Assembly (NCBI GenBank): GCA_045106895.1 | Contig: JBGCFM010000192.1 | Location: 1 to 31,457, forward strand | Length of the DNA: 31,457 bases | Source: Polyangiales bacterium | Lineage (GTDB): Bacteria > Myxococcota_A > Polyangia > Polyangiales > Houyiibacteriaceae | Reading direction: 5' to 3' | Shown: piece after piece, positions 919-31,457 of the stretch | Layout of the letters: every line of letters begins with the position of its first letter | Position numbering within the stretch: the first letter of the stretch is position 1 | Made by a program: the position numbers and the translations under genes | The notes under the pieces: model-generated | Told to the model about the DNA's origin: nothing | The model's input: only the letters and a program-made list of their open reading frames with translations | The model's database searches: none

Positions 919-2516
919 TTGGCTTCTCCTTCAAGCATCGCCTGCAACGCCTTACGGTCCGTCTTGCCGTTCGCATTAAGAGGGAATGTGTCGATCTGAA
1001 TGACGCGCGACGGTTGCATATAGGCCGGAAGAAACGCCTTCACGTCCTGTTGGATAAGCGCCACGTCTTTGTCCGATGGACTCACAAAACCAACGATTCC
1101 GTCGGCGCCGCTCGCGCTGAGAGGCCAACCGATCGCGATGGCGACATCCGCGCCGCTCTCGCTCCGTAGTACCGCCTCAATCTCGCCGAGTTCCACGCGG
1201 TAGCCCATGATCTTGATCTGGTTGTCGACGCGCCCGAGGTAAATCAGGGGGCCGTCTTTGAGCTGCCTGACGCGGTCGCCGGTCCGGTAATAGATGCAGT
1301 CTTCTCCCGGCGGCACGACGAACACTTTGTCCGTGCGGGCTTGGTCTTCCCAATACCCCAGAGCGACCTGAGGGCCCGTCAGCAAAAGCTCGCCATCCGT
1401 ACCGGTGGGCACTTCGTTTCCTTCGGCGTCGGAGACACGAACGATCATGTTCGGATAAGGCACGCCGATGGGCACAACGCCGTGGAGCGCTTCGGCCTTG
1501 GACGCCTCCCCTTGCCACCGGTAGAGGGTGCAGGCGATGGTCAGCTCGGTAGGCCCGTAGAGGTTCTCCACGATGGCGTTTGGCGTGGCAGCGGCGAAAC
1601 GTTCGGTAATGTCGACGGGCAGAGCCTCACCGCAGAAGAGCGTCCAACGTAGAGTGGGGTAGGCGTCTGGTTTCAACATGCGCAGCTTGCTCATGAGCAC
1701 GCCCGTCGAAGGAACGCTGAACCAAACCGTGAGCTCTTGCTTCTTGACGTACTTGCCCGGGAAGAGCTTCTGTTGAGCCGTCGGAACGCAGAGACAAGCG
1801 CCACACGCCCACGCACAAAACATGTCGAAGGCGCTCAGGTCGAAGGTCAGGTCGAAGGTCTGCGAGAAACGATCGTTCTCGTCAAAGCCGTAGCGCTCGA
1901 CCATCGAATGAACGAAGGCCACCACGTTGCGCTGAGCGACCATGACACCCTTGGGTGTACCGGTGCTGCCGCTGGTGAAGAGAAGGTAGACGAGGTCGTC
2001 TGGGCTGACGGGCCCCAGCATGTACCCGTCCCCATCTTCGAGCCCCGCAGCCCCGATGAAATGATGCCGAGGGAACGCTGCACTGAGCGCAGCGACGTCT
2101 TCGGCGTCGGGAAGCACAACGACAAGCTCGGTCGCGATGCCCGTCAACAACTCTTCAAGTTTGCCTTCGCCCGTCTTGTCGACGACCAGCGCGCGGCAGT
2201 GCGAGCGCTCAAGCATGACGCGAGACCGGTCGATGGGAAACGCCGGGTTAAGTGGCACGTATCCGTGGCCCTCGTAGAGAACGCCGAGGATGCCCGCGAA
2301 GGCGCTCGGTGCCCGATGCCCAAAGACGGCGCTGAGACGATGTTCGCCGGAGGGGGCCGGCGCGTGCTTTCGAAGCGTCGCTCCGATGCGTCGCGCTCTC
2401 TCGTCGAGTTCAGAGTAGGTGAGGGACTCTTTGCCAATGGACAAAGCCGGACGCGTGGGGTGAGCTTCACGCGAACGGAGAAAGCCGTCTCGCACTGTTT
2501 CTGTTGTGGCCGTCAC
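915..2516 (-). CDS. Stand-alone amino-acid adenylation enzyme (DltA-like carrier-protein ligase)
   Basis: A-domain cores YLLFTSGSTGTPKGV, FDLS, FCGEAL, NLYGPTE, YRTGD, GRVDNQIKIMGYRVELGEIE and PLNANGKTDRKAL; no C or T domain. Confidence 0.9.
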   Translation of the reverse strand: MTATTETVRDGFLRSREAHPTRPALSIGKESLTYSELDERARRIGATLRKHAPAPSGEHRLSAVFGHRAPSAFAGILGVLYEGHGYVPLNPAFPIDRSRVMLERSHCRALVVDKTGEGKLEELLTGIATELVVVLPDAEDVAALSAAFPRHHFIGAAGLEDGDGYMLGPVSPDDLVYLLFTSGSTGTPKGVMVAQRNVVAFVHSMVERYGFDENDRFSQTFDLTFDLSAFDMFCAWACGACLCVPTAQQKLFPGKYVKKQELTVWFSVPSTGVLMSKLRMLKPDAYPTLRWTLFCGEALPVDITERFAAATPNAIVENLYGPTELTIACTLYRWQGEASKAEALHGVVPIGVPYPNMIVRVSDAEGNEVPTGTDGELLLTGPQVALGYWEDQARTDKVFVVPPGEDCIYYRTGDRVRQLKDGPLIYLGRVDNQIKIMGYRVELGEIEAVLRSESGADVAIAIGWPLSASGADGIVGFVSPSDKDVALIQQDVKAFLPAYMQPSRVIQIDTFPLNANGKTDRKALQAMLEGEAK

Positions 2517-2770
2517 GCGGCGAGTGTAGCGAAAAACCCCGCCCAGAGTGTGTTGATGCTCGTGAACACCTCTGGCTCGATCTCATCGGTATCGACCTCT
2601 TCTTCACGAAGCTCTTCGATGTAGAGGACGAACTCGACGATATCCAAAGAGTTGAGCAAGCCCACCTCAAGAATTGGAAGGTCGTCGGTGAGAGCGTCCT
2701 TTTCCATGGGCGCCTGACTGTGCTCAAGGAGCCAGTCTTTGAGCTGATTTCGCACTTCCGCTTCGTTCAT
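2513..2770 (-). CDS. Acyl/aminoacyl carrier protein (DltC-like)
   Basis: 85 aa, acidic, GLLNSLDIVEFVLYIEE around the phosphopantetheine Ser; GTGA overlap with the adenylation gene. Confidence 0.85.
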   Translation of the reverse strand: MNEAEVRNQLKDWLLEHSQAPMEKDALTDDLPILEVGLLNSLDIVEFVLYIEELREEEVDTDEIEPEVFTSINTLWAGFFATLAA

Positions 2771-3185
2771 ATCGTCTCACTGGCCAAGGGCCGAAAAGTC
2801 GGCGAGACAATACGCAGTTGGCGTCTGGGCGCAAGGGAAGAGACGCCCGCCGTCGGGGTCGTGACGGGAAGGGCTTGACGGACACTCCCCGCGTCGCCGT
2901 CGACACTGGCTTTTAGGGCGTGTTTGTGCTAGAGTTCACTCTCTGGCGACGAGATCCTGTCTTAATCGTGCTGACGCACGCGACGGTGATTCCAGGTCAG
3001 GCCACATAGCCAGGTTCGAACGCAAAGCGTCGTCTGCCGACGCTCTCTGCAGCGCGTGAAACGCACTTTTGAACCACGGCGAGCTCGCTTAGGCGGTCCC
3101 ACCCCTCAGCCAGCAAGTGTCAGCGCACGGTGCGCGGCACTTCTCGACCACTTACGCCCGGCCTTCGGACCGGAACGGAGAACCT

Positions 3186-4241
3186 GTGACCTCAACGAAC
3201 TCAAACACCAACGCTCCCGCCAACACCGACCTCGACATCATCGACGGCGCCACCTCGATGCACACCCTCTTCCGGCACACCCGCCGAGAGATGTGGGGGC
3301 TTGGAATCGTCCTCGCCCGCGACGATGACCGTGTGAAGATGCAGTTTCAGGATGGACGCACCCGCTCCTTCGCAAACGGCTACTACCACATGCTCGATGC
3401 CGTCGACCGCCCCCTCGACCTGACCCGCAGCGTGGTCAACGCACTCTGCTCGATGGTGGACGACGAAGCAGCGCCACGTGCCACGGGTCCGGAGCCGGTC
3501 AGCTTTGACGAACAGGTGCGCTTCTTTCAGGCAAAATACGCAGCCGGTTTCCACGACGCGGAGTACTCGGAGCGGCATCGAGGCGATGGGCGCAAGAAGC
3601 CTCTGAAGCGCCAGCGCGATGGGCTCGTTGAGAAGGCCCGAAAGCTACAGAAGCCGCAGATGTCCAAGTGGATGAAGGCTGGCGAGTTCGCAGAGATTCA
3701 CAAGGCCGCCAAGGGCGTGGCCAATGTCACGGACCTCGTCGCCGCAAAGGAGCGTAAGGCCTTCGCGGCGATCGGTGAAGAGCATCACGAGATGTTTGCT
3801 GCCAGCCTTCACGCTCTCCTTCACGGCACAAGCAAGCTCGTCGCGCGCATGGACGGTTTCATCCGCACGCTGACCACAGCCATGGGAACGGCTCCTAGCT
3901 GGGGCCTCGCATCTGTGTTCTTGGGCGCGACGCATCCCGAACAACACGTGGTCGTTCGCGGCAAGGTATTGGCACTGCAGTGCGCGTGGATGGCCCCCGG
4001 CCTGAGCGTCTCTGACAACCCCATGGGCATTCTCTACGAGCGACTCGCAAACATGACCAAGGATGTGAAGGCGCGGCTTGAAGAAGCCGGATTTGAGCCC
4101 CGAGACATGCTCGATGTAACGGACTTTATGTGGGCGACACTCCGCCCCATGGCGCAAAAAGAGATCATGAGGATGCGTCGGGCGACACCTCGTCTCTCCG
4201 CGACCGTCAGCGCGAACGAAAACCAAGAACAGGCCGCGTAA
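3186..4241 (+). CDS. Hypothetical protein; small N-terminal beta (DUF3553/SH3-like) domain plus a helical domain ending PRDMLDVTDFMW
   Basis: GTG at 3186 preceded by GGAG; open 351 aa; segment H..WGLGIV....DRVKMQFQDG resembles DUF3553-type domains (from recall). Confidence 0.7.
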   Translation: MTSTNSNTNAPANTDLDIIDGATSMHTLFRHTRREMWGLGIVLARDDDRVKMQFQDGRTRSFANGYYHMLDAVDRPLDLTRSVVNALCSMVDDEAAPRATGPEPVSFDEQVRFFQAKYAAGFHDAEYSERHRGDGRKKPLKRQRDGLVEKARKLQKPQMSKWMKAGEFAEIHKAAKGVANVTDLVAAKERKAFAAIGEEHHEMFAASLHALLHGTSKLVARMDGFIRTLTTAMGTAPSWGLASVFLGATHPEQHVVVRGKVLALQCAWMAPGLSVSDNPMGILYERLANMTKDVKARLEEAGFEPRDMLDVTDFMWATLRPMAQKEIMRMRRATPRLSATVSANENQEQAA

Positions 4242-4292
4242 GCCCGGCCGCTTCGCATCCCGCGAGGCTGACAAGGCTCAACTGGAAAAGGA

Positions 4293-4325
4293 AAAGGCTG
4301 AGATGGCAATGCCGTCTCAGCCTTT
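4293..4325. terminator. Probable bidirectional intrinsic terminator
   Basis: AAAGGCTGAGATGGC-AAT-GCCGTCTCAGCCTTT, a 15-bp stem with one G-U pair, between convergent genes; followed by TCCTTTTCC on the minus strand. Confidence 0.75.
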
Positions 4326-4370
4326 GTCGTTAGCGCGCGCTTCTTGAAGCGAGAGCGCGGCGGCTTTGAG

Positions 4371-5234
4371 CTAGAGAGCTGGCTCTTCTGTAAGGAGGTT
4401 GTTCTCAAGGAAGAAGTTCACGAGCTTCCGGCTCGCGCGTTCGCGGTGCTCCGCCGTCGCCGGGTGCGCGAGCGCAGCCTTACGAATCTTGTACGCACCT
4501 TCGAGTCCGGCGTCCTTGTACATGGTCGGGTTGTAGAAGTCGGCCCAGCTCGATTTGAGGTACTGAGCAAGCCACTTCTGAAAACCGGCGCGCAGTTCGT
4601 CGTCCCACTTCGGCAACCACTCCGCGGCAACTTCGGCAAGCCGGAGCCGACCGAAGGCGATGTGTCGCGACTCATCACGATGGTGGACATCGTTGAGGAG
4701 CGCGACGATGGGCTCGAGGCGTTTGTCCTTGGCCATCTTGATGTTGTAGTAGTCGCCAAGCTCTTCGACGACGAGGGCCTTGCAGAAGAACGCGACTTCT
4801 TCTTCGCCCTTGGCGTACTTTCGGTCGAGGGCAATCTTCTTCTCTGGGTACACCTTGCCGATGTACTTGTTGAGGAACATGCCAAACATGATCATGTGCT
4901 TGTTTTCCTCGTCGAGGAAATGATGCAGATACTCGGTGGATGATTCGTCCATCCGCTTGGAGTAGAGGCGGTCGCTCAGTCCGGCGACGAGTGGGCGCTC
5001 CCCCTGTAGCGTCAAGCTAAAGAAGTTCGCGCACTCGTACAGGCTCAGCTTGAGCCGCTGGTCTTCGTTGAGCGCATCCCAAGCTTCCGTGCCGAAGAGC
5101 GAGCATAGCTCCGGCGCCATGCACCACTTCTCACCGGACAAGGCCTCGGGCCAATCGAATCGATCGTAGACGTTCCAGAAACGGTCACGAGAGAGTTTGG
5201 TTAGTTTTTGGGCGACGGTTGAAGCGGTTCTCAT
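4371..5234 (-). CDS. AurF-like ferritin-fold diiron oxygenase
   Basis: Paired carboxylate/His motifs QGE...DEENKH and VEE...HHRDESRH with AurF-family spacing; 287 aa. Confidence 0.85.
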   Translation of the reverse strand: MRTASTVAQKLTKLSRDRFWNVYDRFDWPEALSGEKWCMAPELCSLFGTEAWDALNEDQRLKLSLYECANFFSLTLQGERPLVAGLSDRLYSKRMDESSTEYLHHFLDEENKHMIMFGMFLNKYIGKVYPEKKIALDRKYAKGEEEVAFFCKALVVEELGDYYNIKMAKDKRLEPIVALLNDVHHRDESRHIAFGRLRLAEVAAEWLPKWDDELRAGFQKWLAQYLKSSWADFYNPTMYKDAGLEGAYKIRKAALAHPATAEHRERASRKLVNFFLENNLLTEEPAL

Positions 5235-5310
5235 AGCTTCCTAACTATTGGTGCACTTTGGTGGGACGGCAAGACAGACCCGTGATCTCGGACACTGGTT
5301 TCGCGGGTCT

Positions 5311-6441
5311 TTAGAACATGGGCCCATGACCGTCGAAATTGGAGACAAAGAGGCCACGTTGGCTCTGGGTCCACGGCTCGAGCGCCGCCTGAAAGGCCGG
5401 ACTTGCACAGAATAGCCGACGTCCAGCGACGGAAACAAAGCCCTTGTCCTCAAAAGCGCTGATCCATCCAGCGTGGCTCTGGTTGGCGATGACCATGTCG
5501 GCGCCGTTTTCGCGCAGGTATTCGTACGCCGCGTGGATCACCTCGCCCGCGTCTTCCGGCAAAGCGAGGTAGTCGCCCACCTGACCCACATTGAGATTGC
5601 CGAAGCGGCCGTCGTCCTTCTTCTGCTTCTGCAAAACGACGGCCCAGCCTAACGTTTTCCCATTCTTGCGGATTCGCAGCCGCGTCGGCGGTGGCCATTC
5701 CAAAGTCTTGTGCTCCGCCGGGATCATGACGTTCATCGTCGCCGAATCTCGTACCGCGATAGCGTCGTAGCGCGGCGACACCTTCTCCCAGATCTCATCG
5801 GCCCAGGGCCCAAACTCACTCACGACTTCGGCTTCCGCCGAGAAGCGTTTTTTCGATTTGAGCCGGAGCGCCGCATGCAGGGAGCCCATCGCGAGATCTC
5901 CGAGACCACTCTTCGCCAGAACATCCTGGGCAAAGGCCCGCTTCGCGTCTTTTCGGAGTTCTCCGTTGTGAAGCAAGAAGTTCTTTCCGTTGCAGATGCG
6001 AAACAAGAACGGCGTGGGATGCATGAGCCAGCCCATTTTCGCCAATAGCTTAACGATCGGCTCGTCGTTTCCACCGTGCCCCCAGCTGTAGAGCATCGGG
6101 TACTTCTTGAGCATGTCTCGCAGTAGGCGAAGGCCGAGGACGGCGTACTTGGAATCGATCACACCGAGACTGATGGGACCTTGCCAGTCGGCGACCATTC
6201 CGGTCTTGCCATGGATGCACCACTCCTGAGGCTTCAGGGCGTACGCGCCGACACAGCGTGTCTCGTTCTCGATGGCGAGGAACATCTCCCGCCAGACCTT
6301 TTGGCCCTCACGTTTTGGGACCCAGATAGGTTCGGGATCGACGTAGAACCCCCAAGGGGAGTCCGCGTTGCGCAGCTCCGCGTTAAAGGTCTCAACGAGT
6401 GGCTTCATCTCTTCGCCGTGCCCGACGATCTTCGTTCCCAT
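5311..6441 (-). CDS. GNAT/FemAB-like acyl- or aminoacyl-transferase (putative)
   Basis: Start moved to ATG 6441 to avoid overlap with the divergent gene; two GNAT-like halves (CVGAYAL...LGLRLL; LGWAVV...VGDYLA); same strand as and directly upstream of the AurF-like gene. Confidence 0.55.
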   Translation of the reverse strand: MGTKIVGHGEEMKPLVETFNAELRNADSPWGFYVDPEPIWVPKREGQKVWREMFLAIENETRCVGAYALKPQEWCIHGKTGMVADWQGPISLGVIDSKYAVLGLRLLRDMLKKYPMLYSWGHGGNDEPIVKLLAKMGWLMHPTPFLFRICNGKNFLLHNGELRKDAKRAFAQDVLAKSGLGDLAMGSLHAALRLKSKKRFSAEAEVVSEFGPWADEIWEKVSPRYDAIAVRDSATMNVMIPAEHKTLEWPPPTRLRIRKNGKTLGWAVVLQKQKKDDGRFGNLNVGQVGDYLALPEDAGEVIHAAYEYLRENGADMVIANQSHAGWISAFEDKGFVSVAGRRLFCASPAFQAALEPWTQSQRGLFVSNFDGHGPMF

Positions 6442-6449
6442 GGGGCGGG

Positions 6450-6500
6450 AGTATGCCACACCGTTCTGTGTTTGCGACGGTGGGGCTTTCTGGGGATAAT
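6450..6500. promoter_or_regulatory. Back-to-back sigma70-like promoters
   Basis: Plus strand: TTGCGA(6472-6477)-17 bp-GATAAT(6495-6500), 7 nt before ATG 6508. Minus strand: TGG-CATACT extended -10, 8 nt before ATG 6441. Confidence 0.55.
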
Positions 6501-6507
6501 CACGCCG

Positions 6508-7323
6508 ATGATCAAGCCAATCGAATATGAGCGGGAAGCGCTCCGCGATGCTTTTCGCGACGCCACTCCCTTTCCCCACGTCTCCATGGACCCCTTTCTT
6601 CCGGAAGCGACGGCGGACGCGCTTGCTGGCGCGTTTCCTTCATTCGACCAGGCGAGCAAGGTCGGCAAACAGTTTACGGCTGTGAACGAGCTGCGGAAGA
6701 TCCAGATCACAGACACGGAGGCGTTCTCTGGACCCATCGCGGAGCTCAATGATTTCCTGGCGAGCCCTGAGTACCTCAAGGAGCTTGAGTTCATCACCGG
6801 GATTCCAAACCTCTTGGCCGATCCAACCCTCGCGGGTGGCGGAATACACATGACGGGATCCCGGGGCCGCCTCGATGTGCACGTTGACTTCAACTACCTC
6901 GAAGAAGCGAAGCTTTACCGCCGTCTAAACCTCCTCCTCTATCTCAACCCGGTGTGGGAGCGAAGCTGGGGTGGCGCCGTCGAACTCTGGGACGAGAAGG
7001 TCTCGACGCTCCACCACTCGTTCGAACCGAAGCTGAATCGCTGCGTTCTCTTCGAGACAAGCCAGCGGAGCTATCACGGCGTAGAAGAGGTTCGCTGTCC
7101 CCCCGACATGACGCGAAACTCTTTCGCCGTTTATTACTACACGAAGGAGCCGCCGCCGGACTACCCAGGCTACAACCACACCACCCGCTTCCGCGCGCGC
7201 CCCGACGAGCCGCTCAAGAAGTACGTTCTGATGCCTGCGGAGAAAGCGAAGATCGCCGTCAAAAAGGGACGCGAAAAGGCGAACCGCGCCAAGGACAAGG
7301 TAAAGAAGCTTCTCGGCCGCTGA
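6508..7323 (+). CDS. 2OG-Fe(II) oxygenase (prolyl-hydroxylase-like)
   Basis: GGGIH...LDVHVDFN (HxD), RRLNLLLYLN, GGAVELWD, SYHG and RNSFAVYYY; start at ATG 6508. Confidence 0.9.
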   Translation: MIKPIEYEREALRDAFRDATPFPHVSMDPFLPEATADALAGAFPSFDQASKVGKQFTAVNELRKIQITDTEAFSGPIAELNDFLASPEYLKELEFITGIPNLLADPTLAGGGIHMTGSRGRLDVHVDFNYLEEAKLYRRLNLLLYLNPVWERSWGGAVELWDEKVSTLHHSFEPKLNRCVLFETSQRSYHGVEEVRCPPDMTRNSFAVYYYTKEPPPDYPGYNHTTRFRARPDEPLKKYVLMPAEKAKIAVKKGREKANRAKDKVKKLLGR

Positions 7324-22006: not shown

Positions 22007-23158
22007 CTAGAGACGTGCCTCCAGACGAAGGTGCGCAGCCGGCGCGCTAAGACTGGCATCCTCGCCCATCGTGCAAGCTCCCATTTCGCATGAGCGCTCG
22101 AAGCGCAAAAGCGCGGCGCCAAGGTCTGCACCGAGGGACCATGAGCCGGAGTCGCCGCGACCGACGAGCCACACGTCGACGCCTACACGTGCGAGGAAGA
22201 AGCCGCTGGCGAAGAAACCTTCGAGCTGCGAATGGATGCGAATGCGCCGAAAAACGAGGCCCTGGATACGGAGCATCACACGCTGCACTTTGACGCCGTC
22301 CGCATACAAACCTTCGAAGGCCAAGCGAACGCCGATGCCGTCTTCCACACCAAGGCGTAAGTGCAGTCCGGCGCTTGGGGCGACTTCTCCGGGGCGCAGT
22401 CCTCGCGAAGGCGTCACGCCGAGGGATAGCTCCACGCTGCCGTAGTGGGCGTCGACGCCACCGCGGATGGCGCCGGCGAGCGCGAAGGAACGTTCACCCC
22501 CGAGACGCGCGAGGAGCACTGGGTGTGCTTCGACGCCGAGCGTCCACGGGGACTCGAAGCGATGGCGAATGCTCAACGCCCCCATGCCGGCAATCCCATC
22601 GGAGCCAGCGACGCCAAGACGAAGTGTCATCGAAGTCGCGCCACGCCCGGTGTCGTCCAACCCCGCATAGTGCGGCAACCACGCCTCTCGGTCCGCGGGG
22701 GTCGCCACGGGCCTTGGGTCTACCCAGGAGGGCCGGGGCGCTGGGGGCGGCGGCACCGGAGGAGGAGGCACTGGCCGCCGCTCCGCGTCGAGCTCCGGCG
22801 CCGTGCTGCCGCGCCGTCGGCCAAGAGTCTCCACGATGGCAAGGGCTACGAAACGCCAGTGGGACTCGGTTTCGCCGATGGCCAACTCCGTCTCGCGTTC
22901 GTCGACGACGAGAGAGACCAAAGCGGGGACATCACACGTGCCTTCGGGCACCCGAACCGTCACGTCGGCTTCTTCGACGTCGCCCGCGAGGCACTGCGCC
23001 TGAACGAGCGATGCCAACGTCTGCGTCGCCTCCGGGCAGTCGACGACGTGAACACGAGGGCAGCTTCTTGGCTGGTCTTGCTCTTGGGCCTCCGTATGTC
23101 CTGCGACACAAGTGATGCACGCCGTGCAAAAGAGCACCGCCGCGCGCGCGCGCTTCAC
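22007..23158 (-). CDS. Exported protein: signal peptide, Cys-rich ~85-aa domain, Pro linker, probable outer-membrane beta-barrel
   Basis: TEA|Q-type signal cleavage site, PVPPPPVPPPPAP linker, alternating amphipathic strands ending HLRLEARL; GTGA overlap with the FecR gene. Confidence 0.6.
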   Translation of the reverse strand: MKRARAAVLFCTACITCVAGHTEAQEQDQPRSCPRVHVVDCPEATQTLASLVQAQCLAGDVEEADVTVRVPEGTCDVPALVSLVVDERETELAIGETESHWRFVALAIVETLGRRRGSTAPELDAERRPVPPPPVPPPPAPRPSWVDPRPVATPADREAWLPHYAGLDDTGRGATSMTLRLGVAGSDGIAGMGALSIRHRFESPWTLGVEAHPVLLARLGGERSFALAGAIRGGVDAHYGSVELSLGVTPSRGLRPGEVAPSAGLHLRLGVEDGIGVRLAFEGLYADGVKVQRVMLRIQGLVFRRIRIHSQLEGFFASGFFLARVGVDVWLVGRGDSGSWSLGADLGAALLRFERSCEMGACTMGEDASLSAPAAHLRLEARL

Positions 23159-24249
23159 GGCAAAACCTGTACCGGCTCATCGGGGTAGCGATCGTAGAAA
23201 CGCCGCCAAGCGCTCGTTGCGTTGCCACCCGCCGCCTCTGTGGTTTCCGCGTAGCCACGCATCGCTCCTCGCCGCAAGGGCTCCGCCAAGCCCAGCTCGA
23301 GCGCCCGTTCGAAGAGCCGCGCGGCGCGCGCCGGCGCAGTGTGCTCCAGGGAACGCGCTAAGGTTAGGGCCGCGAGATCGCTGTCACCGTCGCCCAGAGC
23401 GATGGCCTCTTCGAGCAAACGTTCCGCGTCCGCTCGACGCCCTTGGCGGCGCGCAGCGTCGGAGGCGTTCATCAGCTCCGCCGCATTCCTGCTGTCTTCG
23501 GTACTCATGGTGTCTACGAGGGTCGAAGTCTCGACACGGGTCGAGGTCTCAGGGCTCGCAGTGTGCTCGGAGTTCACGGTGCCCACAGAGAGGTCCGTCG
23601 GCGCAAGCGCTTCGACAGGGTTCGGGGACGCAGGCGTTTCTTCCTGCATCGAATCCGCCTGGGCAGAGGGCGTCTCGATCTCGACGCTTTCGCCCGCCGT
23701 GAGTCGTTCCACGCCATCCCTGACGTGCTCGCTTCGTACCAGAACGACGCCCTCTTCGACATGAACACGCAGGCGCCCTTGCGAGCGATCGATGACGAAC
23801 TCCGTCCCTACGATCTCCACCGATGCGCCCCCAGCGTCGATGCGCCACTCCCGGCCCTGCCCTTCGACGGAGTAGTGAACTCTTCCATTTCGCTGGACAA
23901 ACTCCACGACTCGCCCGGTGTTGTTGATGGGAACGACTTCGGCTCCCTCTTCCAGGGCGAGGAGCGAACCGTCGGAGAGCCCAACGCGTGAGGGCCCGAC
24001 AAGGACACTCTCAATGAGAATGAGGTCGCCGCTTTCCAGCGTGAGCGGGGACAAGTCGCCCTGGGCTTCCGTCCACGGATGCCAGACCAAGAGCGCGACA
24101 GCGGCGGCGGCGATGAGCGCGGCTCCGCGCGACGTCCGGCCCCTCGTGCCGCCTCGCCTTCGGCTTCGTGTGGACTCGATGCGACGCCACACGTGGTCCA
24201 CACGCTCCTCCGGAACAGATGGATGTGGCTTCTTCATCCCCTCACTCAT
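23155..24249 (-). CDS. FecR-family anti-sigma factor with C-terminal TPR-like region
   Basis: TM AALIAAAAVALLVW; FecR motifs LSDGS, VEIVGTEFVI, VHVEEGVV; helical C-terminus ending YDRYP; ATGA overlap with the sigma gene. Confidence 0.85.
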   Translation of the reverse strand: MSEGMKKPHPSVPEERVDHVWRRIESTRSRRRGGTRGRTSRGAALIAAAAVALLVWHPWTEAQGDLSPLTLESGDLILIESVLVGPSRVGLSDGSLLALEEGAEVVPINNTGRVVEFVQRNGRVHYSVEGQGREWRIDAGGASVEIVGTEFVIDRSQGRLRVHVEEGVVLVRSEHVRDGVERLTAGESVEIETPSAQADSMQEETPASPNPVEALAPTDLSVGTVNSEHTASPETSTRVETSTLVDTMSTEDSRNAAELMNASDAARRQGRRADAERLLEEAIALGDGDSDLAALTLARSLEHTAPARAARLFERALELGLAEPLRRGAMRGYAETTEAAGGNATSAWRRFYDRYPDEPVQVLP

Positions 24250-24806
24250 GGCGATGCCCCCCACCGCGCCAAGCGCCCTTGGGCTTTCGCCACCCGTCTC
24301 TTAACCGTGGCAGGTGATGCGCCTACGGACGCCGCGACCTCGGCGACGCTCATTCCTTCGATTCTTTGCAGGGTCCACGCGATGCGTTCGTCGGCGGGAA
24401 TGCGCCGGAGAAAGCTCGCAGCCTGTGCGAGCTCAGCGCGCACGCTCGGCGCAGCCTGTTCCGACCACGCGGACTGGGAAAGCGCGAGCTCTGAACCTCG
24501 GCGCCACCAAGACCGCTCTCTTCGCATTCGAGCGCGACACTCATTGAGAGTGATCTGACGAAGCCAAGCGCCGAAACGCTCACCTCGAAACTGTGCGATG
24601 CGTTCGAAAGCCCGGATGAATGCATCGTGGACGACATCGTCCGCGTCAAACTCGTTCCCGAGCATGCGGGTCGCGAGGCCAAGCATGTCCGCAGCGTGCA
24701 GCCGATAGAGCGCTGCGGGCGCCATAGCCTCCCCACGGCGGAGACGCTCTACCCACTCCTTCTCCGGCACCTCGGGGGTGCTTCTACGCAGCGGAACGAC
24801 CTTCAC
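24246..24806 (-). CDS. ECF RNA polymerase sigma factor
   Basis: Region 2 DADDVVHDAFIRAF...FGAWLRQITLNEC; region 4 IEGMSVAEVAASVGASPATVKRR; start codon uncertain (GTG 24806 chosen). Confidence 0.88.
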   Translation of the reverse strand: MKVVPLRRSTPEVPEKEWVERLRRGEAMAPAALYRLHAADMLGLATRMLGNEFDADDVVHDAFIRAFERIAQFRGERFGAWLRQITLNECRARMRRERSWWRRGSELALSQSAWSEQAAPSVRAELAQAASFLRRIPADERIAWTLQRIEGMSVAEVAASVGASPATVKRRVAKAQGRLARWGASP

Positions 24807-24982
24807 GTCTCGACGATGCGTCCCAGAGTCTAGATGGCTCGCAGCACCGTGAGCCTCATCACACAGAGAAAGAAAAAGTGAGCCGGTGACAAGACGCTGC
24901 GCGTCGTGATTGTAACGATGAAAAGCACTCCGGCGAGGATGATGAACGGCCAGCAACGCACACAGGGCGCGGGTTAGCGAAG

Positions 24983-26044
24983 TTGAAGCGGCTGATGTTG
25001 CTGGCGTTGTGTGCGTGCGGAACCTGGATGACTCCCCCGATCTCCAATGCGCCGTCCCCTTCCCCGAGCGCCGAAAGCGCGTGGGTCGTATTCCTCGCGG
25101 AACCAATGGAACCTTTCGTGTCGTTCAGAACGGCAAGAGAAGGGGCCCGGGTTCATACGATTCGTGACGAGACCGGAAGAATGCTCGGGCGCCTCAACGG
25201 TCAGAGCTGGTTCGCCGTCGAGCGCCCTCCTGGACGCCAATGGTTCTTCAGCGGCGACTACACCGTGGGGCGCGTGTGGGACGAAATGGCGACCACGATC
25301 GTGGGCGCGCTGAGGGCGGACTTGGAGCCTGGCAAAATCTATTTCGTGCGCGCGGACTTTCGCACCGGCGCTCAGCGCGGAATTCGCGAGAGAATACGAG
25401 AGTCTCGCGACAGCCCTTGCCTCATGCCCGACTTCGACAATGACCTTCAGCCGATGTTTGCGGACCTCGTCGGAGTTCTTCCAGGTAGCGCAGACTGGGC
25501 TCGCGCCTTGACCGTGCTTCGCCATGGAGTGCGATATCAAGCTGCGCCGCGAAACCTCGACGAAACAGATTTCAACAACACCCCAGCTCGAGGTCGCGCG
25601 CGGTTGGGTCGTTGCCTCGACATCGACAAGAGCCGCCTCGCCGCAGAGCACGGGGTTTCCGCTTGGCCCATCCCGGCGCCGTCCGTGGGTCCCGACTTCG
25701 CAGAGGATCCTATCTTCGACACAGAAGAAATCTTCGGCGTTCGGGACGCAGAACCGCCTACTCGCGGCCGCGGGACATGTCCGCAAACCCTCGTGAGCGG
25801 TTGCCTCGAAGCGACGGACGAATTGAATGCGATCGTGCGGGCGCAGTGTCTTGCGCGCTCGCCCGAAGTACGCGTCGAGAGCGACGTGAACGCATTCGTC
25901 CGAGTTGTCTCGGGAACTTGTGCTCTTCCCGAGACCGTGGAGTTGCAGGTCGGTGAAACCCGTGCCCGTTTGACGCTGGGGCCGTCACCGGCGACTCGAT
26001 GGCGTTTTGTCGCTTTGGCGATCGTCGAGAAAATTCCGCGCTAG
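24983..26044 (+). CDS. Chimeric lipoprotein: DUF2846-like domain plus a C-terminal Cys-rich domain shared with 22007..23158
   Basis: Lipobox LCAC; GRLNGQSWFAVERPPG...LEPGKIYFVRA; C-terminal CP......C.EAT......AQCLA...GTC..P...WRFVALAIVE. Confidence 0.7.
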   Translation: MKRLMLLALCACGTWMTPPISNAPSPSPSAESAWVVFLAEPMEPFVSFRTAREGARVHTIRDETGRMLGRLNGQSWFAVERPPGRQWFFSGDYTVGRVWDEMATTIVGALRADLEPGKIYFVRADFRTGAQRGIRERIRESRDSPCLMPDFDNDLQPMFADLVGVLPGSADWARALTVLRHGVRYQAAPRNLDETDFNNTPARGRARLGRCLDIDKSRLAAEHGVSAWPIPAPSVGPDFAEDPIFDTEEIFGVRDAEPPTRGRGTCPQTLVSGCLEATDELNAIVRAQCLARSPEVRVESDVNAFVRVVSGTCALPETVELQVGETRARLTLGPSPATRWRFVALAIVEKIPR

Positions 26045-26098
26045 GAGTGCGTCGAAGGCCGGGATGAAAAAGCGGGGCTTTGTCACTACAACTTCGAT

Positions 26099-27007
26099 AT
26101 GGACTGGCTCAACTACCACCACCTTCTCTACTTCTGGACCGTCGCCCGGGAAGGCTCCGTCACGGCAGCGGCTGCGACGCTGCGTCTCTCGCAGCCCACG
26201 GTCAGCGCGCAGATCCGGACCCTTGAGAGCACGCTGGGGCAGCGCTTGTTCAACCGCGTGGGGCGAGGTCTGGAGTTGAGCGAAATGGGCAAAGTCGCTT
26301 TCCGCTACGCCGACGAGATCTTCTCCCTCGGCCAGGAGATGCAGGACGTCTTCGCTGGACGCGCAGGCCACGGAGACCGTTTGGTGATCGGAGTGAGCGA
26401 CCTCGTGCCGAAGCTTGTATTGCATCGACTCATCGCACCGGCGCTGGCGATGGCTCAGCCGCCGCGGATCACTTGCCGCGAAGACAAGACGGACCGACTT
26501 CTCGCGGAGCTTGCGCTTCACGACATCGATCTCGTCCTCGCTGAAACCCCCATCACGGGTCAAAGCGTGCGCGCGTTCAATCACCCCTTGGGGGAGAGCG
26601 ACGTGACCTTCTTCGCCAAGAAGGCCCTGGCCCGTAAGTACAAGAAGGGCTTCCCGCAATCGCTTCACCAAGCGCCGCTCCTTGCCCCGACCCCCAACAC
26701 CCTATTGCGGCGTTCCTTGGATCGTTGGTTCACGAAGCTCGACGTCCACCCGAACCTGGTGGCGGACTTCGAGGATAGCGCCCTCATGAAATCCTTCGGG
26801 GCGGCGGGCGCAGGTGTCTTTCCGGGCCCAAGCGCGATCGAAGCGGAGATCTGCGACACCTACAACGTTCAGCCCATCGGGAGTACGCATGAGGTGGTGG
26901 AACGCTTCTATGCGATCACCGTCGAACGACGCATCAAGCATCCCGCGGTGCGGGTCATCAGCGACAACGCCAAGCAGCTGCTCTTCCCAGACCCGCGCGA
27001 ACACTGA
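26099..27007 (+). CDS. nhaR: LysR-family transcriptional activator NhaR
   Basis: Characteristic N-terminus WLNYHHLLYFWTVAREGSV and C-terminal FEDSALMK.FG..G.G.F, FYAIT.ERRIKHPAV. Confidence 0.85.
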   Translation: MDWLNYHHLLYFWTVAREGSVTAAAATLRLSQPTVSAQIRTLESTLGQRLFNRVGRGLELSEMGKVAFRYADEIFSLGQEMQDVFAGRAGHGDRLVIGVSDLVPKLVLHRLIAPALAMAQPPRITCREDKTDRLLAELALHDIDLVLAETPITGQSVRAFNHPLGESDVTFFAKKALARKYKKGFPQSLHQAPLLAPTPNTLLRRSLDRWFTKLDVHPNLVADFEDSALMKSFGAAGAGVFPGPSAIEAEICDTYNVQPIGSTHEVVERFYAITVERRIKHPAVRVISDNAKQLLFPDPREH

Positions 27008-27009
27008 CG

Positions 27010-27351
27010 CTAAACGGCTCTGGCGCGTCCGGCACGAAGAAACTTCGAACGGCGCGAAGGTACACGTTTTTCAATTTGGCGCCGAGCGCGTCCCACGGCC
27101 TTGGCGACGGATCCCTTTGGACAATCCGAGAGCGCCTGCGCCACCACCGGAGCGCCTTTGTCACGAAGCGAGATGTCCACGACACACCGTTGATCGACCC
27201 CGCCTCGTGGCCCATTCTGGTCTTTGACGGAGATGGACACCGAACGAATCACCCCCGCCAATCGGTCGAGGGCGAAGCGCGTACGACGCCGGATCTCCCG
27301 CTCGGTGTTCTTCTCTACATCCGCGCCAATGAACTGAACTGCAATATCCAT
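27010..27351 (-). CDS. HPF/RaiA-family ribosome-associated protein
   Basis: RR.RFAL.R...I..VSI...DQNGPRGGVDQRC motif; AGAGGAG RBS before ATG 27351; convergent with nhaR. Confidence 0.75.
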   Translation of the reverse strand: MDIAVQFIGADVEKNTEREIRRRTRFALDRLAGVIRSVSISVKDQNGPRGGVDQRCVVDISLRDKGAPVVAQALSDCPKGSVAKAVGRARRQIEKRVPSRRSKFLRAGRARAV

Positions 27352-27391
27352 GTGTGAACTCCTCTGCGCCCAGTGTAGAGACCCCAAACGC

Positions 27392-27442
27392 ATAGACAAT
27401 AAGGAAGATTCATTCGAAAACATAGATACAGTCTATGTTTTC
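27392..27442. promoter_or_regulatory. AT-rich LysR-type operator region with a perfect 11-bp inverted repeat
   Basis: GAAAACATAGA-TACAG-TCTATGTTTTC (27416-27442); T-N11-A boxes at 27392-27406 and 27413-27427. Confidence 0.55.
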
Positions 27443-27523
27443 AATTTGCCGGTGAAAGCTCATCTTGCGCTCGGGGACAAAAAGCGTGACCCGATGGACC
27501 GCGGGGCTGCATCGTGTGGTCAC

Positions 27524-28231
27524 ATGTGCCTCCGCCCCCTACGGCTCGTCGCCTTCGTCGCTCTCGGTGCGTGCGGGTCCATGCTTCCGCCGCCTTCGAC
27601 GGATCCTGTACCCACGCCGAGCCCAGAGAGCGCCTGGGTCGTGTTCTTCACGGACGACAACGAGCGATTCAACCCACTCTTGTCTGTACGCGACGAAGAA
27701 GGACAGCTCCTCGGGCGCGTTCGAGGTCGCAGCTGGTTTGCCGTGGAGCGCCCACCGGGCTTGCAGTGGTTCTTCGCCGGCGAAGTGTTTCACCTCTGCC
27801 ACGGGGATCCGTCGCGGGGCCGCTCCAGCGTCGGCGCCCTCAGCGCTGACCTCGAAGCCGGACGTGTCTATCTCGTCCGTGCAACGGCGTATCAGGGAAG
27901 GCGCCGCAGCATCGCCGAGAGATTCCGCGCCATGAACAGTGGCTGCTGCATGTCGGACGACGACGACGGAAGGCCCACTTTCCTCGACCTCATTGGGGTT
28001 CGGCCAGGCGGGAGCGAGTGGATCCGCGCCCTCGATGTTCTTCGCGAAGGCGTCCGATATAGCGCCGCGCCGCGCGGCCTTGAGGAGCGCAGCGTGTCGC
28101 AAATACCCGCACAGGGGCGCGCGCGTTTCGGCCACTGCATCGACGTCGAACGAAGTCAGCTCTCCGCCGAGGACGGCTCGCGCTTCTGGCCTCTGACCCC
28201 CGTCGATCCCTCCGATGCCCTCATATTCTAG
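27524..28231 (+). CDS. Lipoprotein, paralogue of the N-terminal domain of 24983..26044 (DUF2846-like)
   Basis: Lipobox LGAC; ESAWVVF, SWFAVERPPG.QWFF.G, VGAL.ADLE.G..Y.VRA, GVRY.AAPR.L.E and GRAR.G.C.D all shared. Confidence 0.72.
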   Translation: MCLRPLRLVAFVALGACGSMLPPPSTDPVPTPSPESAWVVFFTDDNERFNPLLSVRDEEGQLLGRVRGRSWFAVERPPGLQWFFAGEVFHLCHGDPSRGRSSVGALSADLEAGRVYLVRATAYQGRRRSIAERFRAMNSGCCMSDDDDGRPTFLDLIGVRPGGSEWIRALDVLREGVRYSAAPRGLEERSVSQIPAQGRARFGHCIDVERSQLSAEDGSRFWPLTPVDPSDALIF

Positions 28232-28237
28232 GCTGAT

Positions 28238-28268
28238 TTGCCGACTGGACACACATTCAGTATAGGGT
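28238..28268 (+). promoter_or_regulatory. Sigma70-like promoter of the topB-recQ fusion
   Basis: TTGCCG(28238-28243)-17 bp-TATAGG(28261-28266); overlapping TAGGGT ends 6 nt before the ATG. Confidence 0.5.
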
Positions 28269-28274
28269 AGCGGG

Positions 28275-31200
28275 ATGCCGACCCTCGTTCTCGCCGAAAA
28301 GCCCTCTGTCGCTCGTGATATCGCGGCCGTTCTGGGCGCGAGCGCCAAGCGAAACGGCTACCTTGAAGGCAACGGCTACAAGGTCACCTGGGCCGTGGGT
28401 CACCTTCTCGGTCTCGCGTCCCCCGAGACGATGCAGCCCGCGTGGAAACGCTGGAGCTTCCGAACCTTGCCCATGCTCCCTACGCGCTGGCAGCTGAGCC
28501 CGCGCGAGTCCGGCGAGAAGCAGCTTCGCGTCGTGCGCCAGCTCTTCGGCGACGCGGACACGAGAGACATCGTCAACGCGACGGACGCCGGGCGCGAAGG
28601 CGAGCTCATCTTTCGTTACATCTATGAGCATCTCCGCTGCCGCAAGCCCGTGAAGCGTTTGTGGATCTCGTCGCTGACTCCTGCGGCGATTCGTCAGGGC
28701 TTCTCGAAGCTCCGGCCCTCTGCGCACTTCGATGATCTCGCCGACGCCGCCAAGGCACGCAGCCGCGCGGACTGGCTCGTGGGGATGAACCTCTCGCGCG
28801 CCTACACCATCGGCTCCGACGAGACATACTCCGTCGGTCGCGTGCAGACGCCGACGCTCGCGATGCTCGTCGAGCGGGAGCTGTCCATTCGCGACTTCGT
28901 TCCGGAGTCCTACTCAGAAGTACGCGCGACCTTCAACACGGAAGTCGGCGAGTACACAGGTGTGTTCGTCGCGGAAAAAGCGGAACGCTTCGTGTCTGCA
29001 CGCCCCGGCGACGAAACCAAAAACCCGTGCCGCGTGGCTCGCCCCGAGTTCGCGGCGAAGGTCGCCGCGCGAGCCACAGAGGGGTTCGCTCAGCTCACGT
29101 CTGTCAAACGTCGCCTTCAGCGCATCCCATCCCCGCGCCTCTATGATCTGACGGACCTGCAGCGCCATGCCAACCGTCTCTACGGTTTCTCTGCGAAGCG
29201 GACCCTTGAACTCGCTCAAGAACTCTACGAGCGACACAAGCTCATCAGCTACCCACGAACGGACAGTCGTTACCTGAGCACGGACATCGCCAAAGTCCTC
29301 GACCCCATCGCCAGCGCCGTGGAGAGCTCCTACGCGGCGACGGCGCCGAACATGCGAATGCCGGATGGAAGCCTTCGTCCACTGACCAAGCGCTTCGTCG
29401 ATGACGCGCGCGTCACCGATCACCACGCCATTATTCCGACGGAAGCGTCGTGCAAACTCGCGACGTCGAGCGACGCGTTCAAAGTCTACGACTTGGTGTG
29501 CCGGCGTTTCCTCCAGGCCTGGCATGAAGACCACATTCAGGCCGTGACCAACGTCGTGACCACAGTCTCCGGCGCTGAAGATGAGGCTCCCTTCGAGGAC
29601 ACGTATCGGAGCCGCGGCACAAGCGTTGAGCAGGTCGGCTGGAAGGCCCTGGATGTGGGCGCTGGGAGAAAGTCTCGCCACGTGACACTCCCCGGCGGGC
29701 TAGTTGCGGAGATGCCAGCGAATGTCCAAGAGGCGAAGGTCCTCGAAAAGAAAACGCTAGCGCCGCGACGTTTCGATGACAGCACGCTGCTGACGGCGAT
29801 GGAGAGCGCAGGGAAGACGCTTGAGGACGAAGAGCTCGCAACGGCGATGAAAGAGAGCGGGCTCGGGACACCGGCGACGCGGGCCGGAACCATCGAGACG
29901 CTCATCGCGCGCGAGTACCTTGAGCGACACGGCAAGAAGGAACTCCGCGTGACGAGCAAAGGCGTCGCCCTCATCGCGCAGGTTCACCCGAGCGTGAAGA
30001 GCCCCGCGATGACCGGCGCGTGGGAGCTACGCCTCGCGCGCATGGCCAGCGGCGCCGAAGCCCTCGACACGTTCATGCACGAGATCGAAGCGCACGTGCG
30101 CAGCATCGTAGAAGAACTGCGAGGCGAAGATGGTTTCACCTCTCGTCCGGCTCTTCCAGACTCTGCTGGCTCCGGCGCCTCGCTCTGTGAAACGCGCCCA
30201 CAGACTCGCAACGCAGAGTTCAGCATCGAGCCTCGCGTCACGCGAGAACGCACCGCACCCAGCGAGCTCCCGGCGCTCCTCCGCGAGACATTCGGCTTCG
30301 ACTTTCGCCCGCATCAGAAGTCCATTTGCGAGACCGTCACCGAGGGCATCGACACCCTCGTCGTCATGCCAACGGGCGCCGGCAAGTCCCTCTGCTACCA
30401 GCTCCCGGGCATCGCGCGGGGCGGCACGACCATCGTCATCAGCCCTCTTGTCGCCCTCATCGAAGACCAGGTGTTGAAGCTGCAGGCCGCTGGACTGGTC
30501 GCGGAGCGCATTCACTCGGGCCGTACGCGCGTGCAGAGCCGCGAAGTGTGTCGCGCGTACCTCGATGGTCGCCTCGACTTCCTCTTCATTGCGCCGGAGC
30601 GCCTCGGCGTCCGCGGCTTTCCAAGCATGCTCGCCAAACGCCCGCCGACGCTCATCGCTATCGACGAGGCTCACTGCATTTCCGGGTGGGGGCACGACTT
30701 CCGGCCGGACTACCGCATGCTCAAAGAGCGGCTTACGGCGTTCCGGAGCGGGGCTCCCTTGGTGGCACTCACCGCGACGGCGACGCCCCTCGTTCAGAAG
30801 GACATCTGCGAGCAGCTCGGCTTGCATGGCGACGGAAAGGAAAACGGCGGCTCTAAGAACAAGGGGAAGAGCGAGTCGAAGCAGTTCATCTTGGGCTTCC
30901 GGCGGACAAACATCGGCGTTGAAGTCGTGGAAGTTCCGCGACCCGAACGCGGCGCGCAGGCCCGCGCCATCTTGGAGGGCGAAGGTCGTCTCCCGGCCAT
31001 CGTGTACGCTCCCACGCGAAAGACCGCGGAACAACACGCAGCGACCTTAGGCAAAAAGCTGCGGGCCGGCTTCTACCACGCGGGTATGAACGCTTCGGCA
31101 CGGAGCGAAGTACAGCAGCAGTTCATCGATGGTGACATCGACGCCGTTGTTGCCACCGTCGCCTTCGGCATGGGCAGCGACAAGGCCGACGTACGCACCG

Positions 31201-31457
31201 TCCTGCACATGGCACTCCCGGCGAGCCTCGAGGGCTACTACCAAGAGATCGGACGCGCCGGACGCGACGGGGAACAGAGCCGGGCGCTGTTGATGTACTC
31301 CTACGGCGACGTACGCACGCTGCAGTCTTTTCTGGATCGCGACTATCCGCCTGTCTCGAAGCTCGCCAAAGTGCACAAAGCCATCTGCACCGAATCGCTT
31401 TTGCGCGAGGACCTCATCGCCAGCGTCAACGCCAAGGACGAAGACGCGGAAGCGTGG
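28275..31457 (+). CDS. topB: DNA topoisomerase III fused in frame to a RecQ helicase (runs off the window, >1061 aa)
   Basis: Hand translation shows no stop. TopB motifs: LAEKPSVARDIA, ATDAGREGELI, SVGRVQTPTL, catalytic LISYPRTD (Tyr codon 29250), DHHAIIPT, GLGTPATRA. RecQ motifs: MPTGAGKSLCYQLP, DEAHCISGWGHDFRPDY, ALTATAT, YHAG, ATVAFGMG, YYQEIGRAGRDG. Confidence 0.93.
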   Translation, partial: MPTLVLAEKPSVARDIAAVLGASAKRNGYLEGNGYKVTWAVGHLLGLASPETMQPAWKRWSFRTLPMLPTRWQLSPRESGEKQLRVVRQLFGDADTRDIVNATDAGREGELIFRYIYEHLRCRKPVKRLWISSLTPAAIRQGFSKLRPSAHFDDLADAAKARSRADWLVGMNLSRAYTIGSDETYSVGRVQTPTLAMLVERELSIRDFVPESYSEVRATFNTEVGEYTGVFVAEKAERFVSARPGDETKNPCRVARPEFAAKVAARATEGFAQLTSVKRRLQRIPSPRLYDLTDLQRHANRLYGFSAKRTLELAQELYERHKLISYPRTDSRYLSTDIAKVLDPIASAVESSYAATAPNMRMPDGSLRPLTKRFVDDARVTDHHAIIPTEASCKLATSSDAFKVYDLVCRRFLQAWHEDHIQAVTNVVTTVSGAEDEAPFEDTYRSRGTSVEQVGWKALDVGAGRKSRHVTLPGGLVAEMPANVQEAKVLEKKTLAPRRFDDSTLLTAMESAGKTLEDEELATAMKESGLGTPATRAGTIETLIAREYLERHGKKELRVTSKGVALIAQVHPSVKSPAMTGAWELRLARMASGAEALDTFMHEIEAHVRSIVEELRGEDGFTSRPALPDSAGSGASLCETRPQTRNAEFSIEPRVTRERTAPSELPALLRETFGFDFRPHQKSICETVTEGIDTLVVMPTGAGKSLCYQLPGIARGGTTIVISPLVALIEDQVLKLQAAGLVAERIHSGRTRVQSREVCRAYLDGRLDFLFIAPERLGVRGFPSMLAKRPPTLIAIDEAHCISGWGHDFRPDYRMLKERLTAFRSGAPLVALTATATPLVQKDICEQLGLHGDGKENGGSKNKGKSESKQFILGFRRTNIGVEVVEVPRPERGAQARAILEGEGRLPAIVYAPTRKTAEQHAATLGKKLRAGFYHAGMNASARSEVQQQFIDGDIDAVVATVAFGMGSDKADVRTVLHMALPASLEGYYQEIGRAGRDGEQSRALLMYSYGDVRTLQSFLDRDYPPVSKLAKVHKAICTESLLREDLIASVNAKDEDAEAW

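Follow-up and report, generated by a model that had tools for sequence, protein, structure and literature searches.

RecQ-family helicases and topoisomerase III (Topo III) cooperate in all domains of life, and in bacteria the partnership rests mainly on biochemistry with the separate proteins of Escherichia coli. Described here is a reading frame that joins the two enzymes in one polypeptide, in the order TopB–linker–RecQ. The frame is located at the end of a stretch of 31,457 nucleotides from a Polyangiales bacterium (contig JBGCFM010000192.1 of assembly GCA_045106895.1), and the whole of this stretch is called the window below. The encoded protein contains the same two enzyme families as the E. 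coli pair, all of the catalytic motifs, and the same RecQ catalytic-core fold. In E. coli the two enzymes are separate proteins that act with single-stranded DNA-binding protein (SSB), whereas here they form one chain. The TopB portion differs in belonging to a Bacillota-like subfamily, without the Zn-ribbon tail of that subfamily, and the RecQ portion differs in an insert of ~65–75 amino acids within the Zn subdomain and, in this genus, in having no HRDC domain.

The catenation–decatenation and converging-fork reactions of RecQ and Topo III (Harmon et al. 2003; Suski and Marians 2008) are cited in the accessible portion of PMC7245102. The in vivo role of the bacterial partnership is still called poorly defined in the accessible portion of PMC13244152.

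A natural covalent fusion of a superfamily 2 (SF2) helicase fold with a type IA topoisomerase is also found in reverse gyrase. The protein described here differs from reverse gyrase in having the opposite order of domains, a true RecQ, and a flexible linker of variable length, whereas reverse gyrase contains a reduced helicase-like module and a packed interface with a latch. It also originates from a mesophilic soil and sediment lineage. The accessible portion of PMC7245102 states that hyperthermophiles "uniquely" fused helicase and topoisomerase units; the fusion thus qualifies the textbook claim that reverse gyrase is the only helicase–topoisomerase fusion.

The eukaryotic BLM/Sgs1–Top3–Rmi1 complexes likewise couple a RecQ-family helicase to a Topo III-type enzyme, with double Holliday junctions and hemicatenanes as the presumed substrates. 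The coupling in those complexes is non-covalent, via the N-terminus of the helicase and the RMI1 subunit with its oligonucleotide/oligosaccharide-binding (OB) fold, whereas a peptide linker is used here. No RMI1-like partner or conserved neighbor was found at the fused loci when 51 other such loci were compared.

Listeria monocytogenes has a recQ gene followed on the same strand by an adjacent, separate topB gene, the reverse of the order seen here and with no fusion between them. The genes belong to the two families discussed, and their matches to the two halves of the query are ~40% identical. The pair links both families by neighborhood in another phylum. In record NZ_LR134400.1 (positions 2983–6932; L108) the two genes are 23 bp apart and operon-like; the record is filed as a 594-kb "plasmid" and looks chromosomal.

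The topB–recQ reading frame and its domains

The fusion gene occupies positions 28275..31457 of the forward strand, and its parts are given below on that strand. Translation and the listing of open reading frames (ORFs) provided 1061 codons from the ATG at 28275 with no stop and with an open 3′ end at the contig end, as the preliminary description of this DNA had stated. The window is the entire contig, one of 288 in a 96%-complete draft genome, and the gene is truncated at its 3′ end for that reason. An in-frame TAG appears upstream at 28263–28265, the ATG at 28275 is the first start after it, and the N-terminus of the protein, MPTLVLAEKPS, lines up with the N-termini of its homologues. The full-length homologue P0002, which is 93% identical to the window protein, has 1279 residues; therefore ~220 C-terminal residues, or ~220 codons, are absent from the window copy. 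The missing 3′ end was sought by tblastn of a same-genus C-terminus against the whole assembly, which provided only a 39% match, to another RecQ paralogue on contig C50. The G+C content of the DNA is 62.6%, and within the frame the values by codon position are 0.66, 0.48, and 0.78 over its entire length, a coding-like pattern. An open frame of 1061 codons in DNA of this G+C content, combined with the E-values of the domains, is far beyond chance.

The topoisomerase half begins with a Toprim domain (28281..28673, residues 3–133, Pfam) that contains Glu8 and the acidic motif D104-A-G-R-E108. The Topoisom_bac core, corresponding to domains II–IV of a type IA topoisomerase III, follows at 28731..30077 (residues 153–601) with a Pfam E-value of 8.6e-100. 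The codon for the catalytic Tyr326 is at 29250..29252, within SYPRTDS. In the alignment to E. coli Topo III (1d6m), Tyr326 in LISYPRTDSRYL is aligned with LITYPRSDCRYL, the active-site tyrosine motif, and tyrosine is found at this position in 119/119 sequences. The first 620 residues score 647.5 bits with the NCBIfam model NF005829 (cut-off 597), and a score of 547.9 bits was obtained with the topB model TIGR01056 (cut-off 515.75). The best solved relative of this half is 1d6m, with an E-value of 2.8e-90 over residues 4–649. The residues E8, D104, E108, Y326, and R328 are invariant in 118–119 of the 119 fused homologues, E8 being gapped in one N-terminally truncated row. Residues ~510–530 align without gaps to residues ~501–521 of E. 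coli Topo III, a stretch that is presumably the Topo III-specific decatenation loop of domain IV.

The Toprim motif is DAGREGE in 57/57 fused sequences, and E. coli has DPDRE. A dead Toprim domain, suggested by Gly106 in place of the second aspartate, was considered and rejected, because stand-alone TopBs of the same subfamily carry the same motif; the stand-alone relatives contain DAGREGE (12), DSGREGE (15), or DAAREGE (1). The TopB half is assigned to the Bacillota-like subfamily with this motif (PRK07726). Judged by its motifs and family scores, the topoisomerase half is a catalytically complete TopB-type core of type IA. A complete core with the tyrosine near residue 326 and an end near nucleotide 30120 had been proposed from the bare sequence; the tyrosine is now placed by alignment, and the last helix of the core ends at about residue 620, nucleotide 30134, in the AlphaFold2 model.

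The linker is disordered and rich in Ala, Pro, Ser, Arg, and Gly (30132..30257, residues ~620–661). The N-terminal helix of RecQ begins at residue 662, at about nucleotide 30258, and 49 residues separate the alignment anchors 615 and 665 in the window protein. These values are close to the ~45-residue linker without a Zn-ribbon, and to the start of RecQ motifs 0–VI at about nucleotide 30270, that had been reported beforehand. Among the 119 homologues, the linker can be as short as 10 or as long as 360 residues (median 48), and its composition is 17.5% Ala and 16.6% Pro, with Ser, Arg, and Gly also abundant. Its sequence is unconserved among the aligned homologues, and it contains no conserved cleavage motif. 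At the same position, the stand-alone relatives L063, L066, L069, L075, and L084 have Zn-ribbon tails of the form CPxC...C..C. The fusion protein is thus without a TopB C-terminal DNA-binding tail of its own and has the linker and RecQ in its place.

The 1061 residues were modeled with AlphaFold2 using a 119-row alignment. The mean predicted local distance difference test (pLDDT) score is 88.7 and the predicted template modeling (pTM) score is 0.64. The pLDDT falls below 50 in only two segments, residues 620–647 of the linker and residues 854–863 of an insert in the helicase. A complex prediction of residues 2–614 against residues 666–1048, made with the same alignment and without controls, provided values of 0.01 and 0.01 for the interaction prediction score from aligned errors (ipSAE), which weigh neither for nor against a contact between the halves. 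The AlphaFold2 model of the chain showed a topoisomerase and a helicase module that are predicted to fold independently, joined by a disordered connector whose length is free to vary.

The helicase half starts with RecQ motif 0 and helicase lobe 1 at 30258..30785 (residues 662–837; Pfam DEAD 678–837). The Walker A motif GAGKS contains K704, encoded at 30384–30386, and the DEAH motif is at residues 797–800 (30663–30674). Helicase lobe 2 (Helicase_C, Pfam) is at 30990..31271, residues 906–999, with motif VI, QEIGRAGRD, at 990–998. The residues K704, D797, E798, H800, Q990, R994, and R997 are invariant in the 119 fused homologues. The model for the RecQ family, TIGR00614, gave 344.9 bits against a cut-off of 219.8; the RecQ equivalog TIGR01389 gave 376.5 bits, under its cut-off of 640.2, with only 344 of its 591 positions within the truncated window. 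The best solved relative of this half is the E. coli RecQ core 1oyw, with an E-value of 1.8e-77 over residues 667–1022. Both catalytic centers were shown to be intact in sequence, and the invariance of their residues points to purifying selection.

A Gly/Lys/Ser-rich insert is present between the two helicase lobes (30834..30863, residues 854–863), within GDGKENGGSKNKGKSESK at 30819–30878 (residues ~849–868). In an alignment of 13 sequences, the full insert is found only in the window copy and the 93% relative, and a shorter insert occurs at the same site in P0012.

The RecQ C-terminal (RQC) region begins at 31287..31457, residues 1005–1061, a segment that comprises the first helices of the Zn subdomain and the start of a winged-helix insert and is then cut by the contig end. 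The remainder was modeled from the same-genus homologue L006, using its RecQ half and C-terminus (623 residues; pLDDT 82.7, pTM 0.79). The order in the model is two helicase lobes, a three-helix and hairpin insert at 364–418 in the Zn subdomain, the Zn helices, a winged helix at 490–565, and a disordered basic tail. The insert adds ~65–75 amino acids between positions 354 and 365 of E. coli RecQ and is of winged-helix shape. Foldseek placed the L006 model on bacterial RecQ catalytic cores over ~600 columns, including 4tmu_A (E-value 4.9e-35) and 1oyw, with a template modeling (TM) score of 0.71 normalized to the target.

Seven full-length homologues were scanned for C-terminal domains. The Zn subdomain PF16124 was detected in 7/7, and an HRDC domain was present in P0004, P0012, P0016, and P0105 and absent from P0002, P0050, and P0095. 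The four Zn cysteines are conserved. Across 118 homologues, 79 (about two thirds) contain an HRDC-like motif. The preliminary description had looked to RQC and HRDC domains beyond the contig end; in the homologues, an RQC-type winged helix is predicted by the model, and HRDC is absent from the close relative P0002. On these models the linker leads into a complete RecQ-family helicase, in which two RecA-like lobes are followed by a Zn subdomain that carries the winged-helix insert, then by an RQC-type winged helix, and finally by a basic tail.

Occurrence and history of the fused gene

Topoisom_bac, DEAD, and Helicase_C were found in one protein in all 119 listed best hits of the protein databases. 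Fusions of this kind had been supposed to be annotated already in myxobacterial genomes, and a further set of listed hits bears this out with cultured Myxococcus, Stigmatella, Corallococcus, Archangium, and Cystobacter. From a collection with one genome per species, 80 related loci were kept. The two halves are fused in one frame in 44 of these; three more are fused and cut by the contig end inside RecQ, and five are cut earlier. TopB alone was found at 26 loci, 23 of them from Bacillota and one each labeled Solibacteraceae (L041), Rifleibacteriota, and Thiohalocapsa.

The continuity of the linker, where a stop or a frameshift had been named as the point to check, was examined in contigs from three other studies. 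These span 30108–30472 with 0 gaps and no listed indels. In a 14-kb contig of a ~93%-identical relative, 143 nucleotides correspond to 131 nucleotides of the linker (+12 nucleotides), in frame. By the agreement of these independent loci, the fusion is a real chromosomal gene that would encode a single-chain enzyme.

Among 40 other genomes of the same order, the fusion was found in eight. It is one open frame of 1287–1473 residues with both halves in seven of them (G009, G011, G013, G022, G024, G026, and G030), and in the same-genus genome G001 the fused gene is cut by the contig end. Named carriers in the Myxococcota are Labilithrix luteola, Nannocystis, Archangium, Cystobacter fuscus, Hyalangium, Stigmatella aurantiaca, Corallococcus coralloides, Myxococcus stipitatus, M. 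fulvus, and M. xanthus, whose fusion proteins of 1592–1597 residues form a cluster of 9 members. Many metagenome-assembled genomes (MAGs) of Acidobacteriota also carry the fusion, from Bryobacterales, Solibacteraceae, Acidobacteriaceae, and Thermoanaerobaculia. Of 401 Myxococcota genomes sampled, 213 match at an E-value of 1e-100 or better and at least 38 carry the fusion; among the 150 match rows listed, beyond which there are 133 more, a single alignment spans both halves in 23 genomes, and a pair of alignments within one frame of 1295–1990 residues was seen in a further 15.

No topB other than the fusion gene (549.2 bits) exceeds the cut-off in the 96%-complete genome; a further gene on contig C168 is TopA-like. 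Three other RecQ-family genes were found by tblastn on contigs C227, C230, and C50 and are 35–46% identical. The genome has no Topo III besides the fusion, and the fusion is kept in two phyla; this provides evolutionary evidence that the pair may be one functional unit.

Several observations weigh against an intact single-chain enzyme with a joint function. The Zn, winged-helix, and tail domains of the window copy are unassembled and are seen solely in relatives, and a search of RNA runs provided none that matched 29800–31457. Residue 968 (31176–31178) is Ser in GMG(S)DK, where 12/12 aligned homologues have Ile; Ser968 may reflect either true variation or an error in sequencing. At two of the 80 loci, both acidobacterial (L037 and L092), the halves are in two overlapping frames, and one acidobacterial locus ends after TopB. 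Many other Myxococcota have a stand-alone TopB instead (42–49% identical), and some in the 401-genome sample have a stand-alone orthologue of the RecQ half (57–64% identical). Seven such orthologues, 57–60% identical, were identified in G040, G100, G105, G110, G257, G319, and G409 (L014 and L098–L103); they are of ~600–630 amino acids where the frame is tight, with stop codons just upstream. Since these exist, the helicase can work unfused. The preliminary description had raised the prospect of relatives with two separate genes. Such relatives do occur, as the seven stand-alone orthologues and the two overlapping-frame loci, but they are a minority and the fusion in this lineage stands.

The overlaps are at 7808–7887 in L037 and 7857–7998 in L092, and both loci are from long-read MAGs. 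For L092 a frameshift, from an error or in a pseudogene, is likelier than a true split, because nothing upstream of motif 0 in the second frame would serve as a plausible start.

Trees were built from 86 TopB parts (LG+G4) and from 49 RecQ parts; both are quick trees without bootstraps, and no root was inferred. In the TopB tree, all of the fused rows are on one side of a branch, with Shimodaira–Hasegawa-like approximate likelihood ratio test (SH-aLRT) values of 94, 90, and 95, and the stand-alone TopBs of Bacillota are on the other side. The 37 rows from Acidobacteriota are nested among the Myxococcota rows, and spread of the fusion between the two phyla is probable from this nesting. Four rows labeled Pseudomonadota or Actinomycetota also appear within the fused clades and may be labeling problems.

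In the RecQ tree, a single clade (99) unites the fused halves with the seven stand-alone orthologues and leaves out the three other RecQ paralogues of the genome. The stand-alone forms are interspersed with the fused ones; G105, for example, has a fused row as its sister, with a value of 100. Fusion or fission therefore occurred more than once in this tree, and the interspersion suggests repeated loss of the TopB part. Taken together, the trees are consistent with one ancient event that joined a TopB of Bacillota type to a dedicated RecQ paralogue, followed by later losses.

At 5041–8826 of L073, a contig labeled "uncultured proteobacterium", there is a fused copy that is highly divergent, with 44% identity and a long branch in each of the two trees.

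Proposed mechanism and alternatives

The fusion is proposed, with a probability of about 65% and by analogy with the separate E. coli proteins, to be a tethered RecQ/Topo III decatenase-dissolvase and not a reverse-gyrase-like machine. The RecQ motor would bind and unwind duplex or branched DNA using ATP, and this unwinding would yield single-stranded DNA beside the tethered Topo III. Topo III would then pass strands through a transient single-strand break. The outcome would be the unlinking of late replication intermediates, converging forks, catenanes, hemicatenanes, and double Holliday junctions. This would be the reaction of E. coli RecQ and Topo III, with SSB, made obligatory by covalent tethering, which would keep the two enzymes at 1:1 stoichiometry and at high local concentration. 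A linker so variable in length favors tethering and speaks against a rigid coupling of the reverse gyrase type, although a docked state may occur. The preliminary description had called the protein a covalent bacterial "dissolvasome". The single-chain architecture and the intact active sites have held up, and a dissolvasome function may reasonably be supposed by analogy.

In a reverse-gyrase-like machine the two halves would be mechanically coupled, with ATP hydrolysis gating strand passage to give a directional topological activity. The fusion and reverse gyrase are the only two natural proteins that combine a helicase with a type IA topoisomerase, and the fusion has been long kept in two phyla; the extra winged-helix insert is conserved in the fused clade and could be a contact element, and the whole-chain pTM of 0.64 is compatible with a preferred arrangement. 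The order of domains is opposite, however, and the helicase is a full RecQ with Zn subdomain, winged helix, and often HRDC in place of a reduced helicase-like module. With the reverse gyrase model TIGR01054 the protein reaches 96.9 bits, far short of the cut-off of 471.7, and the match is confined to the topoisomerase part. The disorder of the linker and its 36-fold range of length also speak against a fixed geometry, and stand-alone orthologues of the helicase exist. This mechanism is considered unlikely.

An integrated mesophilic ATP-driven topoisomerase, in which closure of the RecQ lobes, perhaps via the clade-specific winged-helix insert, would gate the DNA gate of Topo III, is given a similarly small chance. 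If true, processive ATP-dependent unlinking or supercoiling would proceed without SSB or RMI1, and the fusion would be a second, independently evolved case of a helicase–topoisomerase coupling so far found only in reverse gyrase.

Alternatively, the chain could be a polyprotein-like precursor that is cut in the linker to release two proteins in 1:1 amounts. The linker is long, disordered, and protease-accessible, and stand-alone forms of both halves function in other bacteria. Cleavage is nevertheless decidedly improbable given a linker with no conserved cleavage motif and a locus with no dedicated protease neighbor, and the TopB half, once freed, would be without the C-terminal DNA-binding tail of its stand-alone relatives.

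A role in anti-phage defense or in a mobile element, as a DpdF-type helicase of the Dpd DNA-modification system or as the TopB of a conjugative element, would replace the housekeeping function of the tethered enzyme. The PADLOC profile PDLC02865 "DpdF" (1499 positions) matches both halves and scores the window protein (P0001) at 1154.8 bits and P0002 at 1316.8 bits. The curated NCBIfam model for DpdF, NF041063, gives only 177.5 bits against a cut-off of 550, and no other Dpd protein or coherent defense set was found among the 22 ORFs of the window and 91 flanking ORFs of six fused loci. Membership of Dpd was rejected on the NF041063 score and on the absence of any other Dpd protein from these 113 ORFs. 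Since PDLC02865 spans both halves, the profile seems to be built from fused proteins, and its "DpdF" label can give false Dpd or defense-system calls. TopB genes are common on conjugative plasmids, and the query has matches in at least 5000 plasmid records, including 3885 that are conjugative. No fused form was detected on plasmids by tblastn, however; query coverage of at least 80% was obtained only for two chromosome-like Listeria records with separate genes. The TopB tree also runs largely along phylum lines. The neighbors of the fusion gene are ordinary chromosomal genes, and no flanking ORF is common to more than seven of the 51 other fused loci, the most shared one resembling an ATP-binding cassette (ABC) ATPase. 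A defense or mobile role is accordingly rated as very improbable.

An artefact or pseudogene, in which two adjacent genes were merged by an assembly or frameshift error or in which a decaying fusion has one dead half, would fit a gene that ends at a contig end of a 288-contig draft genome and the change of frame in the linker at two related loci, but its probability is negligible in view of the single frame at 44/80 loci and in all 119 listed database hits, the three studies' gap-free contigs with no listed indels, the invariance of every catalytic residue, and the coding-like G+C by codon position across the whole frame.

Literature, database records, and neighboring genes

No paper describing a Topo III–RecQ fusion was found in a search of full-text literature, the scope of which ended short of subscription-only papers and bioRxiv supplements. 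"RecQ" and "helicase" do not occur in the accessible main text of a 2022 survey of type IA C-terminal domains (PMC9369019), nor does "RecQ" in the accessible part of a 2024 review of type IA diversity (PMC10969213). In NCBI and UniRef the fusion protein is named only "DNA topoisomerase 3" or "RecQ", and the architecture is therefore hidden by one-sided names. It is already visible in public annotation and is apparently unstudied. As a ready-made 1:1 single-chain complex, the fusion is suited to structural and single-molecule work, and its occurrence in the genetically tractable M. xanthus makes its role directly testable.

According to the accessible portion of PMC12288472, the M. xanthus gene MXAN_1950, annotated as "RecQ", is up by ~1.9 log2 units after 10 h of mitomycin C and is also up in a ddiA mutant. 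An identification of MXAN_1950 with the fusion gene was considered and could not be tied; the M. xanthus cluster has other accessions, and the supplement contains no topoisomerase row.

The ORF immediately upstream of the fusion gene (27350–28231) matched nothing in Pfam or PADLOC. The other neighbors in the window include a LysR regulator (26045–27004), an extracytoplasmic function (ECF) sigma factor with a FecR-type anti-sigma partner, a PPC-domain protein, a glycosyltransferase, an ABC transporter with HlyD and TetR, a Na/H exchanger, an AurF-like oxygenase, and an AMP-binding enzyme. The ECF sigma–FecR pair is on the opposite strand at 23158–25106 (−), ~3 kb upstream of the fusion gene. 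The region 918–7320 contains the AMP-binding enzyme, an unassigned ORF, the AurF-like N-oxygenase, and a 2-oxoglutarate-Fe(II) (2OG-Fe(II)) oxygenase, with a polysaccharide deacetylase adjoining, and may be a small tailoring or biosynthetic cluster.

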